A stretch of 64,000 nucleotides of DNA from a virus, in the IMG/VR virus record IMGVR_UViG_3300030104_004631, positions 1 through 64,000 of that record; one strand, 5' to 3'. The notes under the pieces were generated by a model, which did not search any database, was not told the origin of the DNA, and was given only the letters and a program-made list of their open reading frames with translations. Below are positions 52,895-56,456 of this stretch, piece by piece. The first letter of the stretch is position 1; each line of letters opens with the position of its first letter. Made by a program: the position numbers and the translations under genes.

Positions 52895-53322
52895 CGAATC
52901 CTTTTGATGGTCTCGATACTGCCTTTGGAGCAGAACCTTCTGAACTTCAGAAGCATGTTGAGAAGGTGAAACCCCAATTAAAAAAATCTGAAGAAGGTGA
53001 TGTCAAGCAAGATTATGAGACTTCTCGTGCTGCATTACATATGTTAGTGATGAAAGGACAGGAGGCAGTAGATGGAATTCTTGACGTTGCGAGAGCAAGC
53101 GATCATCCTAGAGCTTATGAGGTTGCTGCGACAACGATTAAAAGTGTAGCAGATACTGCTGACAAACTCATTGACTTACAAAAGAAAATGAAGGAGTTAG
53201 ATGCTGAAGATAAAAAATCAGGACCATCGACTGTTAATAACACAATGTTCGTTGGTAGCACTGCTGATCTCCAAAAAATGTTAAAGAAACAAAAGGAGAT
53301 AAATAATACTGACACGAAATAA
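52891..53322 (+). CDS. gp16: Terminase small subunit gp16
   Basis: DYE.SR..L..L..KGQEA..GIL.VA..SDHPRAYEV, VNN.MFVGSTADLQKML. Confidence 0.95.
   Translation: MTNPFDGLDTAFGAEPSELQKHVEKVKPQLKKSEEGDVKQDYETSRAALHMLVMKGQEAVDGILDVARASDHPRAYEVAATTIKSVADTADKLIDLQKKMKELDAEDKKSGPSTVNNTMFVGSTADLQKMLKKQKEINNTDTK
53298..53305 (+). promoter_or_regulatory. Late promoter-like site (GATAAATA)
   Basis: Inside the gp16 3' end, 23 nt upstream of ATG 53329. Confidence 0.55.
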
Positions 53323-53328
53323 CAAGAC

Positions 53329-53865
53329 ATGACAGTTCTTAATGTATTAAGTACCAATTCAGTAGCCGCTGGTGCGACTGAATATCAAACAGTACAAACA
53401 GGATATTATAGAGTTGGTTCTACAGCAGGTGCTGCTACTGTTTCTTTTAACGGTGGTGCGGCAATAACTCTAGTACAAAATGAATTCATTCTTATCAAGG
53501 GTGGCAAACCTGGTCAAGCAAAAATAGTTAAAGCAGTTGATGATTCTACTGCTGATTACTTTGTTGGTGAGCATCTTCAAGATACATCTGCAAATCATCC
53601 ATTCTCTGTGGGAGATTTTATTGCGATTGTAGATGACTCTACTGATCCAGGAATTGATAGTAACTTCCTTTCTGCTGGCACTGCTGGTAAAAAAATTACT
53701 GCAATTTCAACTAGTAACTTATTAACTACTGACGTAGATTCTTCTTCAGCAAGTGCTGATTACACTTGGTCATCTGGTCCTAAGGCAAGAATTTTACGTG
53801 CTGTTAAGATAACAGCTGCCACTAGTGCAGTTATTGTTGAAGAAGTACAAGTAGTAGGCGGTTAA
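53329..53865 (+). CDS. Hypothetical, probably virion structural, beta-rich protein (178 aa)
   Basis: T/A/G/S/V-rich composition; HPFSVGDFI module similar to those in gp7. Confidence 0.7.
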   Translation: MTVLNVLSTNSVAAGATEYQTVQTGYYRVGSTAGAATVSFNGGAAITLVQNEFILIKGGKPGQAKIVKAVDDSTADYFVGEHLQDTSANHPFSVGDFIAIVDDSTDPGIDSNFLSAGTAGKKITAISTSNLLTTDVDSSSASADYTWSSGPKARILRAVKITAATSAVIVEEVQVVGG

Positions 53866-54552
53866 ATGGCTGAAGGTTTTAAGTCTGATATTCCACCCGC
53901 AATTAATCAAACCGCTAAGAAATACATTAGAGGTATGATGAAGGGTAAAAAACGTTGGTCTAAGTTATATGGCACACGTGATAAGGAAGTCATGCATAAG
54001 ACTGCGAATAAAATGGCACTTAAAGATAATCTGAAAGTTATGTATTACAAAGATTTCATCAACTTGGTTGAAGGCAATCCTACTACAAGGTTGCTTTCAA
54101 AAGCAAAATCTAAAACTACTGGAAATATTTCTGCAGATCGGGGAACCGATGAGAAGAAAAATAGATCGAGTAGAAAAAACCTTGAGAAAGATCTCAAGAA
54201 AAAAGGTATTGGTTACAAGAAAGGAGTCGGAGAATATAAATATTCATCAGGTGAAGGCACTGGACGTGAAGTCTCATACCAAACCTCTCCAGGTAAGGGA
54301 ATGAGTAAGCGTCGCTTTGGTAAAGTTATGCGACGATTGGGTCGCAAACATGGACAGGAATCAGTAATCACAAAGAAAGCAGGTAAATCTGCTAAACTGC
54401 ATGATACTGAATCAAAGAAACCCTCTAAGTCTATAAGTTTAGGAAAGGCAAAACCAGGAAAAAATCCTTCTGGACAGGGAGAAACTTCTGGAACAAAAGT
54501 TAGAAAAGGAAAACTAGGTAAAACCAACAAACCATCATACCATTATGGATAA
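53866..54552 (+). CDS. Basic protein with a SAM-lyase-like (SAMase/DUF3293-like) domain; candidate internal head protein
   Basis: ISADR...N.....L..DL...G..GEY...REVS...LGRKHGQESVI; internal MYYKDFINLVE motif. The CDS is solid; the function is inferred. Confidence 0.55.
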   Translation: MAEGFKSDIPPAINQTAKKYIRGMMKGKKRWSKLYGTRDKEVMHKTANKMALKDNLKVMYYKDFINLVEGNPTTRLLSKAKSKTTGNISADRGTDEKKNRSSRKNLEKDLKKKGIGYKKGVGEYKYSSGEGTGREVSYQTSPGKGMSKRRFGKVMRRLGRKHGQESVITKKAGKSAKLHDTESKKPSKSISLGKAKPGKNPSGQGETSGTKVRKGKLGKTNKPSYHYG

Positions 54553-56437
54553 CATGAAAGCAACTATCAATGAAAGGGGTGACCATTGGCATCCCGATCC
54601 TGAGAAGGATAAGAAGTTGGGTGGTCCTGGTGCTAATCAGCGTGCTCGTGAAGATCGTGCTGATGCTGCTAAACCAAAGTCTGATCCTAAGAAGTTGAGG
54701 AAGGGTGAATCATATATGGATTATGCTAAACGTCATGGACACAAGTCACCTACTAAGAAAAAATCTCTCTTGGGTCGTTTAGGTTTGAGGAAAGAAGCGT
54801 ATAGAGTGCTTGCTAAGGACAAAGGTGAAGAAGGTAAACCATCTCAGTTCTCATATAAGGATGAGAAGGATGCTAAGAAATTTGCTGATGGTATTAATAA
54901 GAAAGGTGGTAAGGCAACTGTGACTAAAGAACATCATACAAAAGATAAAGATGGTAAAGTAATAGAGCATGAGGATGGAACACCTAGTTCAGTAGAAGAA
55001 GAAATTAAGATGACTAGGAAAGCATATTCAAAAATCCATAAAGACTTTAGAAGTGACATGAAAAATCCTAGAACTACAAAGTATGTGCCAGGTAAAGGTA
55101 CAGTATCAATGCCTGTTAAGTTTGTGGAAGAAGGAAAAGGTTATCAACCAGAAATCGAACATAGTAAAATGGGTGATGCTAAAAAGAAAGCAGAGAAGAA
55201 AAGGAAAGAAGCAGAAAAGAGTTTACCACCACATCTAAAATTGGATACCATGAGAAAAGCATTTGCACACACTAACGAAAGTATTGATCTAACTGAAGAG
55301 TGGGTTGATGCTAGTATAGAAGTATCAGCAGATTACTTTTTTGCAGAAGGAATCAATGAAGATGGTCTTGATCAGATCATTGATGAAGTTGGACTAGAAG
55401 ATTTTGTAGATTTTGTTATTGATCCTATTGAAGAACTTAATGAAGAAAGGGCAGCAAGAAAGGCATCTGCTAAAGCACCTTCATATGAAAAGGTAAAGGC
55501 AAAGGTTGATGCTGGTGATGCAGCAAGAAAGAAAGCAGGTAAAGGTGAGTATGCTGATACTGCTGCTGCTAAACGTAACTATGGTGATGAAGAAGCACCA
55601 GAAGGTAAAACTGCTAAGAAAAAAGCAGTTGCCAAGGTTACTGTAAGGAAACCTAAAGCAGCACCTAAGAAGAAAGCAGCAACTAAAGCAAAGGTAGAGA
55701 AGGCAGTTAAGACTGCTAAGAAAACTCAACCAGCAAAACCAACATCAAAGAAAGGTTTGTTTGGTAAGGTGGGTGATGCTGTTAAGAAAGGTATGGAAAG
55801 ACATAACAAAGCAAGAGCAGCAGGTAAAGAACCAGAGAAGCGTGTAAAGGAATTCGCAAAAGGATTTAAGAAAGGTGTTAAGGATACAGTTAAGTTTGCT
55901 GGTAAGGTTAAGAAAGCAGTAACTACTGAGGAAAGAGTAGCTGAAGGACTAAAGAAAGCAAGAAAGAATGTGGGAGCATCTACTTGTTGGGATGGTTACA
56001 AAGCTCAAGGAACTAAAAAGAAAGGTGGTAAGGAAGTTCCTAACTGCGTGAAGGAAGAAGAACAAGAACTCAAAGAGTACTCACCAAATGTAAGCTACCA
56101 AGCAAAAGGTGGTAAGAAGTCTGGTAAATTAGGCAAGTCTTCTGTTTACAGTCTTAGGGGAGATGATGAAAGTAAAAAAGATTTTAGGAAGTCTCACGTT
56201 AAAGATGTGAAAGATGGTTATGTTGGTAAAGGACACAAACCTACACCAGGTAAGTTTAAGAAAGAAGAAGCATTAGTTGTTGATGAAGGTATCGGTGATA
56301 TGGCAATTAAAGCAATTGAAAAAACTAATCCTCCACATATCAGTAAGCGTTCTGACATGATGCGTAAAATTAAGTTGAATCAACTTAAGAGTTACTTGAA
56401 GAAACAGGACGAGAAAAAGAAAAAAGCAGCATCATAG
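54545..56437 (+). CDS. Lys-rich modular protein (630 aa); candidate internal-head polyprotein
   Basis: Short basic blocks separated by x-x-E/EE linkers; includes CWDGYKAQGTKKKGGKEVPNCV. Confidence 0.7.
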   Translation: MDNMKATINERGDHWHPDPEKDKKLGGPGANQRAREDRADAAKPKSDPKKLRKGESYMDYAKRHGHKSPTKKKSLLGRLGLRKEAYRVLAKDKGEEGKPSQFSYKDEKDAKKFADGINKKGGKATVTKEHHTKDKDGKVIEHEDGTPSSVEEEIKMTRKAYSKIHKDFRSDMKNPRTTKYVPGKGTVSMPVKFVEEGKGYQPEIEHSKMGDAKKKAEKKRKEAEKSLPPHLKLDTMRKAFAHTNESIDLTEEWVDASIEVSADYFFAEGINEDGLDQIIDEVGLEDFVDFVIDPIEELNEERAARKASAKAPSYEKVKAKVDAGDAARKKAGKGEYADTAAAKRNYGDEEAPEGKTAKKKAVAKVTVRKPKAAPKKKAATKAKVEKAVKTAKKTQPAKPTSKKGLFGKVGDAVKKGMERHNKARAAGKEPEKRVKEFAKGFKKGVKDTVKFAGKVKKAVTTEERVAEGLKKARKNVGASTCWDGYKAQGTKKKGGKEVPNCVKEEEQELKEYSPNVSYQAKGGKKSGKLGKSSVYSLRGDDESKKDFRKSHVKDVKDGYVGKGHKPTPGKFKKEEALVVDEGIGDMAIKAIEKTNPPHISKRSDMMRKIKLNQLKSYLKKQDEKKKKAAS

Positions 56438-56448
56438 ATCGATAAACG

Positions 56449-56456
56449 TATAAATA
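56449..56456 (+). promoter_or_regulatory. T4-type late promoter TATAAATA
   Basis: Perfect consensus in the intergenic region. Confidence 0.8.

Follow-up and report, generated by a model that had tools for sequence, protein, structure and literature searches.

ORF228 of a P-SSM7-like cyanophage, a candidate head-internal SAM lyase behind a T4-like leader

We analysed a stretch of 64,000 nucleotides (positions 1 to 64,000 of the IMG/VR virus record IMGVR_UViG_3300030104_004631, called here the window) and, within it, the open reading frame (ORF) ORF228. A preliminary description made from the letters alone had proposed there an S-adenosylmethionine (SAM) lyase-like domain behind a capsid-targeting-like motif, that is, a candidate virion-packaged anti-defence enzyme. 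The window belongs to a T4-like cyanomyovirus near Prochlorococcus phage P-SSM7, with 94 % nucleotide identity across 53329-56437. ORF228 is 98 % identical to PSSM7_105 of that phage, annotated as 'hypothetical protein', and matches phrog_12788 (E 2.7e-117). It stands among virion genes that follow one another on the same strand (gp13, gp14, gp15, gp16, a DUF7243 gene, ORF228 and ORF630), and its start shares bases with the stop of the DUF7243 gene (TAAATG). The protein is indeed very basic, as first described: its isoelectric point (pI) is 10.37, its content in K+R 25.9 % and its net charge +40, and the SAM-lyase core domain taken alone has a pI of 10.4. Table 1 gives the parts of ORF228 and its neighbours, including the leader, which resembles a capsid targeting sequence (CTS).

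Table 1. Features at the ORF228 locus (positions in the window; residue counts are over 82 relatives)
Feature	Position	Strand	Description
Late-promoter-like GATAAATA	53298..53305	+	31 nt before the DUF7243 start; weak candidate
DUF7243 gene	53329..53865	+	Pfam PF23891, E 1.5e-67; upstream of ORF228, after gp16
ORF228	53866..54552	+	228 aa, ATG start, stop codon 54550-54552; N-module, CTS-like leader, SAM-lyase domain, basic tail
N-module	53866..54039	+	aa 1-58; basic helical hairpin, native N-terminus of a ~590-aa modular basic protein in other cyanomyoviruses
CTS-like leader MYYKDFINLVE	54040..54072	+	aa 59-69; ends L67-V68-E69; predicted cut before G70 (54073)
SAM-lyase core	54073..54453	+	aa 70-196; helix 72-82, then beta-alpha-beta-beta-alpha-beta ferredoxin-like fold
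S89-A90-D91-R92	54130..54141	+	strand beta1; aligned to T3 S-A-F-R; S 68/82, A 73/82, R 74/82
G122-E123-Y124	54229..54237	+	Svi3-3 G56-V57-Y58; G 81/82, Y 75/82 plus 4 F and 3 W
E135-V136-S137	54268..54276	+	Svi3-3 E69-N70-S71; E 82/82, S 77/82
Q164-E165-S166-V167-I168	54355..54369	+	Svi3-3 Q104-E105-S106-V-I; Q 82/82; position 165 E 47, D 33; S 73/82
Lys-rich C-terminal tail	54373..54549	+	aa 170-228; pI 10.4, K+R 27 %; ends in the family-wide G-x-T-x-x-K-V-R...[FY]-H-Y
ORF630	54545..56437	+	remaining part of the split modular basic gene; its start codon shares bases with the stop of ORF228 (ATGGATAA); pI 9.7, K+R 24.8 %

The SAM-lyase domain

Residues 88-196 of ORF228 matched the Pfam family PF23780 (S-AdoMet_lyase) with an E-value of 3.2e-6 and a score of 27.6 bits, for a gathering cut-off of 28 bits. 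The relatives that were scanned exceeded this cut-off, with 32.6 (P0235), 43, 54.3 (P0194), 51.6 and 70.1 bits, the last for ORF6 of the T4-like cyanophage S-CREM2, and a precomputed PF23780.2 match was present in 105 of 120 homologues, among the matches listed. NCBIfam, which has no model for the SAM-lyase family, gave no relevant match for the four proteins scanned. DUF3293, the other family named at the outset, gave sub-threshold matches only, all below the 25-bit cut-off (E 0.015 for ORF228, 2e-4 to 6e-4 for three relatives).

Reaching known structures required more distant relatives. A single-sequence phmmer search with ORF228 against the PDB found no SAM lyase, and only chance matches (E 0.08 to 0.65) were obtained with phmmer and with profile A1, built from 30 close homologues. 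Because both failed, a diverse profile, A2, was needed; it comprises 42 diverse relatives with a mean column identity of 17 %. With A2, and E-values up to 10, only two distinct PDB sequences were retrieved, the T3 SAM lyase (7ock_L, E 2.7e-5) and Svi3-3 (6zm9_A, E 0.018).

Structure prediction gave the same answer. The full-length AlphaFold2 (AF2) model of ORF228 was poor, with a predicted local distance difference test (pLDDT) score of 55; its top Foldseek match was still Svi3-3 (E 2e-3). A monomer model of the domain (aa 59-200), built on A2, reached a pLDDT of 83 and a predicted template modelling score of 0.73. Used as a Foldseek query, as the preliminary description had suggested, it placed SAM lyases at ranks 1 to 4 (E 9e-4 to 3e-3). 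VIA-align gave the domain model a Z of 11.3 to 7ock_L (root-mean-square deviation 3.2, 120 aligned residues) and 10.8 to 8bb1_E, both from T3, and of 8.4 to Svi3-3 (6znb), unrelated ferredoxin-like folds scoring about 8 or less. In these alignments the identity of ORF228 to the T3 SAM lyase and Svi3-3 was only 13-16 %. Both AF2 models are of the monomer; in the known SAM lyases, which are oligomers, the active sites lie between subunits.

The residues that hold SAM were examined in an alignment of 117 representatives and named relatives, of which 82 with a complete core were counted and 35 fragments were left out. In active SAM lyases, only Gly56, Glu69 and Gln104 (Svi3-3 numbering) are strictly conserved, the Svi3-3 site being lined also by Tyr58, Glu105, Ser50 and Ser71 (PMC7877911; here and below, citations are to excerpts of the papers). 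The G56-V57-Y58 segment packs the ribose and makes a cation-pi contact with the SAM sulfonium, Glu69 binds the amino group and the ribose, Q104-E105-S106 bind the homoserine moiety, and the E69Q/A mutants have almost lost activity (PMC7877911). The T3 chain carries, in order, S-A-F-R, G-x-Y, E-x-T and Q-D-C-V-L, and the Svi3-3 chain G56-V-Y58, E69-N-S71 and Q104-E105-S106-V-I; both agree with the order S-A-x-R, G-x-Y, E-x-S/T, Q-E/D-S/C-V-I/L given in the preliminary description. Residues 87-168 of ORF228 read NISADR...GEY...REVS...RLGRKHGQESVI, as first reported, and each element has its counterpart in the T3 or Svi3-3 chain (Table 1). Even the distance from Tyr to Glu is the same, 11 residues in both ORF228 and Svi3-3 (G-x-Y-(10)-E-x-S).

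We conclude that the SAM-lyase domain first proposed is present: that residues ~85-196 of ORF228 belong to the T3/Svi3-3 SAM-lyase family is well supported, and the membership probably extends on to residue 228. The terminal motif of the Lys-rich tail is also kept in distant relatives, although the tail itself was modelled at low confidence in the full-length AF2 model, and the Pfam match of S-CREM2 ORF6 extends to profile position 123, so that the end of the ORF228 tail is probably part of the domain. Given the family match, the fold and the kept SAM-binding residues, ORF228 is taken as a probably active SAM lyase. Family members also occur in Campylobacter T4-like phages, one Alishewanella and one Paraglaciecola myovirus, a Microcystis phage and Lak megaphages.

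The leader, its predicted cut site and its other carriers

Just ahead of the domain, nucleotides 54040-54075 encode MYYKDFINLVEG (aa 59-70), which confirms the in-frame MYYKDFINLVE followed by G that had been read there. The two elements to which it had been compared were also found as stated: the capsid-targeting tag of T4 is MKTYQEFIAE (PMC8442874), and the prohead protease gp21 cuts after L/I-x-E (PMC9026906). T4 internal proteins have only this propeptide in common (PMC9026906, PMC3012670). Such propeptides are N-terminal and measure about 10-19 residues.

L67-V68-E69 is the sole [LI]-x-E of ORF228, yet about one is expected by chance, so this count alone says little. Conservation is more telling. 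Among close homologues E69 is invariant (30/30), I65 and V68 are nearly so, and the rows shown have L or I at position -3. Over the 82 relatives, the column holds [LI]-x-E in 68, [LIVM]-x-E in 72 and E in 73, and 70 have G, S, A or T as the residue that follows. The pLDDT of the leader was below 50 in both AF2 models, which places this stretch outside the fold. Half of the relatives (41/82) have the site among their first 30 residues; of these 41, 23 start with M-x(1-2)-aromatic-x-x-aromatic and a strict T4-like pattern is matched by 15, as in MKTYQEFMLEC (P0148), MKTFQEFIVEC (P0216) and MRTFQEFLQLCEG (PSSM2_114 of P-SSM2). The site is internal in the other 41, as in ORF228; the aromatic pair is kept in 25 of them, some of which read TYKEFIAEG or TYREFIAEG.

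A gp21-type protease homologue (Peptidase_S77, E 3.1e-35) is encoded on the same contig at 68322-68966, beyond the end of the window. It starts with MRLIAEELTDVQFLTEE (MRLIAEE...), and so its own N-terminus contains the sites I-A-E and L-T-E, comparable to the LIE site described for T4 gp21 (PMC9026906). Five [LI]-x-E sites are present within the first 51 residues of the contig's gp23 homologue (70078-71466).

The same kind of leader was found on proteins of other types. In P-SSM2, the SAM lyase PSSM2_114 (MRTFQEF...) is followed by the unrelated PSSM2_115, which starts MKSFKQFLEE. Two proteins of P-SSM7 (GU071103, 154722-155882 and 156946-157464) also carry such a leader: one, cytidylyltransferase-like, begins MKKFSAFLTE, and the other, of DUF6321, begins MKTYSQFIEE, identical to the T4 tag at 7 of 10 residues. 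In the Campylobacter phage CP220 (NC_027997, 116257-117815), the homologue gp189 (MKFKDYIK...) is followed by the small unrelated proteins gp188 (MKFIDYLK) and gp187 (MTFKGYLYEQ), so that a T4-like leader may be used in Campylobacter T4-like phages too. Its presence on unrelated proteins of P-SSM2, CP220 and P-SSM7 means that the leader is independent of the SAM-lyase domain. On the 88-kb contig that includes the window, a narrow regular expression for the leader found no further leader-bearing ORF, and a broader one gave two unconvincing matches (a 57-aa ORF with a TTG start, and a Met 457 aa into a longer ORF); this contig does not reach the regions in which P-SSM7 has its other leader-bearing genes.

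Published virion proteomes bear on the matter. In S-CREM2, 52 virion proteins were detected, including ORF6, called 'SAM hydrolase', with 19 peptides (PMC10665884, 2023). ORF6 matches PF23780 with an E-value of 2.3e-19 and ORF228 by BLASTP with an E-value of 9e-15 (39 % over 117 aa), in an alignment that runs across the leader junction; its N-terminus is MKDFDSFLEEFDRDQESLEE, followed after the predicted cut by SSLSR. Other 'non-structural' virion proteins of S-CREM2 start alike: ORF13 (MKDLHSFLTE), the kinase ORF14 (MKRFDAFLTE) and the cytidylyltransferase ORF154 (MKNFSSFLTE), with looser versions in ORF15 and ORF136. None of the 24 canonical structural virion proteins of S-CREM2 has the leader. 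A genome-wide scan gave 10 matches, of which 2 deep inside larger ORFs were set aside; 5 of the 8 gene starts kept belong to virion proteins, versus 52 of the 221 annotated features (hypergeometric P 0.019), and 4 of 4 with the strict leader (P 0.003), both P-values being post hoc, as the pattern was fixed after viewing the S-CREM2 N-termini. A cytidylyltransferase, T4-GC190, was detected in virions of a second cyanophage, S-SM1 (Sullivan et al., PMC3037559), and the corresponding SSM1_190 starts MKKFSAFLNE.

In the S-CREM2 genome (OR473000, 3837-13934), ORF6, ORF12, ORF13, ORF14 (the kinase), ORF15 and ORF17 are clustered; all were detected in virions and most start MK-x-F-x-x-F-L-x-E. This cluster looks like an internal-protein locus. 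ORF8, near it, is a DNA adenine methylase.

The capsid-targeting reading of the ORF228 leader, with a gp21-type site, is supported by comparison, though in a form other than the one first imagined. The conserved [LI]-x-E column, the MKT[YF]QEF starts of stand-alone relatives, the leader on virion-detected proteins and the detection of S-CREM2 ORF6 in purified virions all speak for it; the leader of ORF228 itself is internal. It is so because a cassette is fused behind the 58-aa module of another gene, and it is therefore not a classical N-terminal tag.

A split modular gene and its expression

The order gp13-gp14-gp15-gp16-DUF7243-(modular gene) is identical in P-SSM7, S-RIM8 and S-8S29. After the DUF7243 gene, S-RIM8 (gp114, 592 aa) and S-8S29 (590 aa) have a single modular Lys-rich protein. 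The N-module of ORF228 matches the first 60 residues of the S-8S29 protein by BLASTP (E 1e-30), as well as positions 33-99 of phrog_727; its helices, 11-25 and 28-58, were modelled with a pLDDT of 64-75 in the full-length AF2 model. Most of the 217 cyanophage records found by tblastn with ORF228 match aa 1-52, 1-65 or 1-90 alone. ORF630 matches the same 590-aa protein at its aa 283-347 (E 6e-22), 351-406 (E 2e-13) and 482-508. Since aa 1-58 of ORF228 and ORF630 match parts of one modular protein, the gene of that protein is here split by a SAM-lyase cassette (leader, domain, tail and stop) that lies within it. M59 appears to be the start codon that the cassette once had. There was no need to assume internal translation from M59, since Leu replaces this Met in two close homologues (LSYKDF) and no Shine-Dalgarno sequence was seen. 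Elsewhere the cassette is free-standing (P-SSM2, upstream of gp13) or is the C-terminal module of basic proteins of 400-760 aa that have modules in common with ORF630. The long forms P0132, P0142, P0199 and P0204 show ORF630 modules directly upstream of the SAM-lyase domain.

ORF630 has 7 [LI]-x-E sites, grouped in one acidic block near aa 249-300. A frameshift or read-through between ORF228 and ORF630 was considered and rejected, ATGGATAA being an ordinary stop/start overlap, the same in P-SSM7. Among the 288 records found by tblastn with ORF630, annotations were 'hypothetical protein' only, so the modular gene yielded no proteomic lead. In the P-SSM7 record, the DUF7243 gene is noted 'similar to S-SM1 protein', as are gp13, gp14 and gp15 but not gp16; this note may mark virion-detected orthologues.

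The consensus of cyanophage late promoters is NATAAATA. The preliminary description had placed ORF228 in a late-promoter unit, and this claim held in part: the gene adjoins same-strand virion genes with overlapping stop and start, and a weak GATAAATA candidate lies ahead of the DUF7243 gene (Table 1), but directly upstream of ORF228 there is no TATAAATA, nor any canonical late promoter. One TATAAATA, at 54235, falls within ORF228; in the window this string occurs 4 times, against 7.5 expected by chance. The next transcription unit has a candidate late promoter in a perfect TATAAATA at 56449-56456, which lies 12 nt past the stop codon of ORF630. Contigs from 4 RNA libraries (4 studies) cover ORF228; 4 records span the DUF7243/ORF228 junction and 2 the ORF228/ORF630 junction. 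These contigs tell neither strand, nor level, nor timing, and may include carried-over DNA; they are compatible with co-transcription of ORF228 with its neighbours.

A proposed preloaded SAM lyase, its rivals and known systems

We favour, with moderate confidence, the view that ORF228 encodes the precursor of a head-internal ('ejection') SAM lyase that is injected with the DNA. The protein would be made together with the late virion genes and be taken up into the prohead core via its leader, perhaps also via the basic N-module. The prohead protease would cut after E69, giving a 17-kDa basic enzyme starting GNPTTR, which would remain with the DNA in the head and enter the next host with the genome. 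There it would cleave SAM to 5'-methylthioadenosine and homoserine lactone ahead of any phage gene expression, and the loss of SAM would weaken SAM-dependent defences, e.g. type I/III restriction or bacteriophage exclusion (BREX). P-SSM7 itself has three genes for SAM-dependent DNA methyltransferases (GU071103, 38068-39626 and 135387-136091; two PF01555, one PF02086). A phage that needs SAM and also destroys it would have to keep the two apart in time or space, and keeping a late-made SAM lyase locked away would make sense.

Several points weigh against this reading. As regards the domain, the ORF228 score falls slightly below the PF23780 gathering cut-off, and profile A1 reached no SAM lyase in the PDB. 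As regards the leader, that of ORF228 is internal (aa 59-69) and a weaker copy, with 5 identities to MKTYQEFIAE when one gap is allowed, whereas the T4 tag is described only as an N-terminal propeptide in the excerpts of the literature on T4 internal proteins. The regular expression used for the S-CREM2 scan does not match ORF228, 3 of the 8 leader-like gene starts of that phage were undetected in virions, the enrichment is post hoc as said above, and the S-CREM2 authors caution that abundant non-structural proteins might co-purify with virions (PMC10665884). PSSM7_105 is known from its record as a hypothetical protein only. Late expression of ORF228 is inferred from gene position only. Lastly, an injected SAM lyase would also starve the phage's own methyltransferases.

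The internal position of the leader, in ORF228 and in 41 of the 82 relatives, together with the caution of the S-CREM2 authors on contamination by abundant proteins, would also fit a cytoplasmic SAM lyase that is merely co-transcribed with virion genes and never packaged, its leader-like peptide being a linker or N-terminal helix whose likeness to the T4 tag has no function. We hold this to be unlikely. The leader is also found on unrelated proteins detected by two independent virion proteomes, it lies outside the fold and is absent from the aligned T3 SAM lyase (of which chain residue 6 aligns to model residue 20), and a SAM lyase left free late in infection would clash with the three methyltransferases of P-SSM7. 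A protein could also be packaged without being an enzyme any more: the extreme basicity of ORF228 and of its core domain, and its fusion to and position beside further Lys-rich modules, are what one would expect of a DNA-associated structural or condensing protein inside the head, acting by charge neutralisation or in DNA ejection like T4 IPII and IPIII, with the SAM-lyase fold kept and SAM cleavage lost or reduced to binding. Under a mean column identity of 17 %, however, E135 and Q164 are kept in all 82 relatives and G122 in 81, as selection on catalysis would give, which makes this alternative improbable in our eyes.

A further alternative concerns the target, and we give it slightly less credit still: the enzyme would act on a SAM-derived signal (the SAM-AMP of CorA-type type III CRISPR systems), or would mainly inhibit the host SAM synthetase (MetK) by binding it, as the T3 SAM lyase does, rather than deplete free SAM. 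The best structural matches were to chains of the T3 SAM lyase bound to SAM synthetase (7ock, 8bb1), and the SAM-AMP lyases 9gab and 9gad were present in the Foldseek list. The latter matches were weak (E about 0.1, ranks 23 and 27) and absent from the 50 VIA-align rows, and nothing among the tests run speaks for a MetK-binding surface in ORF228.

Beyond ORF228, the MK-x-F-x-x-F-[LI]-x-E leader might be a general, portable head-loading address of T4-like cyanophages, and probably of T4-like phages elsewhere, e.g. the Campylobacter CP220 group, used to bring a varying cargo of enzymes into the capsid (SAM lyase, cytidylyltransferase, protein kinase, DUF6321). In this wider proposal many cargoes would be polyproteins of basic modules cut at internal leader/[LI]-x-E junctions, and ORF228 with ORF630 would be such an array in the course of being split by an inserted cassette. 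We put it forward tentatively, doubting it a little more than we believe it. If true, the internal-protein system of T4 would not be confined to coliphages, and would be a widespread means for abundant viruses of the ocean to deliver preformed enzymes by injection. A preloaded SAM lyase would act ahead of any phage gene being read. The turnover of Svi3-3 is about 9.5 per second (PMC7877911); for an assumed pool size, a few dozen enzyme molecules might drain the SAM of a tiny Prochlorococcus cell within a minute. The leader would also provide a simple sequence rule to predict virion cargo in uncultured T4-like phages, and could be used, with laboratory strains, as a tag to load foreign proteins into cyanophage heads.

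Part of this is already known: the SAM-lyase enzyme family is established, and a virion-borne 'SAM hydrolase' of a T4-like cyanophage has been in print since 2023. In a literature search that did not cover subscription journals, no paper was found that ties the targeting leader to a SAM lyase or to cyanophages, nor any report of the leader/protease logic, of its spread over several enzymes or of the internal polyprotein arrangement; the leader strings MKTFQEF, MKTYQEF and MKTFKEF retrieved a T4 vaccine paper only.

Compared to the T3 SAM lyase gp0.3 (SAMase; 7OCK, 8BB1) and to Svi3-3 (6ZM9, 6ZNB), ORF228 has the same fold, motif order and spacing, and the same Gly, Glu and Gln plus the Tyr. 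T3 expresses its SAM lyase as its first early gene. Unlike these two proteins, ORF228 sits among late virion genes, is strongly basic, has a leader with a protease-type site, is extended by an insertion and a tail rich in Lys, and follows a module of another protein to which it is fused.

The nearest precedent is S-CREM2 ORF6, 'S-adenosyl-L-methionine hydrolase (virion protein)', of the same family and also from a T4-like cyanophage, which its authors proposed to enter the host and counter restriction-modification (Front Microbiol 2023, PMC10665884); the excerpts of that paper mention neither a targeting leader nor protease processing. The leader of ORF6 is truly N-terminal (MKDFDSFLEE...LEE, then SSLSR) and the protein has a 240-aa C-terminal extension, whereas the ORF228 leader is internal; the ORF6 gene lies in an early-region cluster of virion-associated enzymes, that of ORF228 between gp16 and gp17.

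With T4 IPI, IPII, IPIII and Alt, the likeness is in the leader, M-K-T-Y/F-x-E-F-hydrophobic-x-E followed by a cleavage-type [LI]-x-E. T4 internal proteins and cyanophage cargoes are alike basic, non-essential-looking and highly variable, with the leader alone in common, and a gp21 homologue is present. At least one of the T4 internal proteins, IPI*, is itself an anti-restriction factor (PMC3012670). The excerpts on the T4 tag do not describe the arrangement of ORF228 and half of its relatives, in which the leader stands inside a polyprotein-like precursor, where two modules join. Past the leader there is no sequence similarity to the T4 internal proteins, and, unlike theirs, the cargo in ORF228 is an enzyme of a known anti-defence family.

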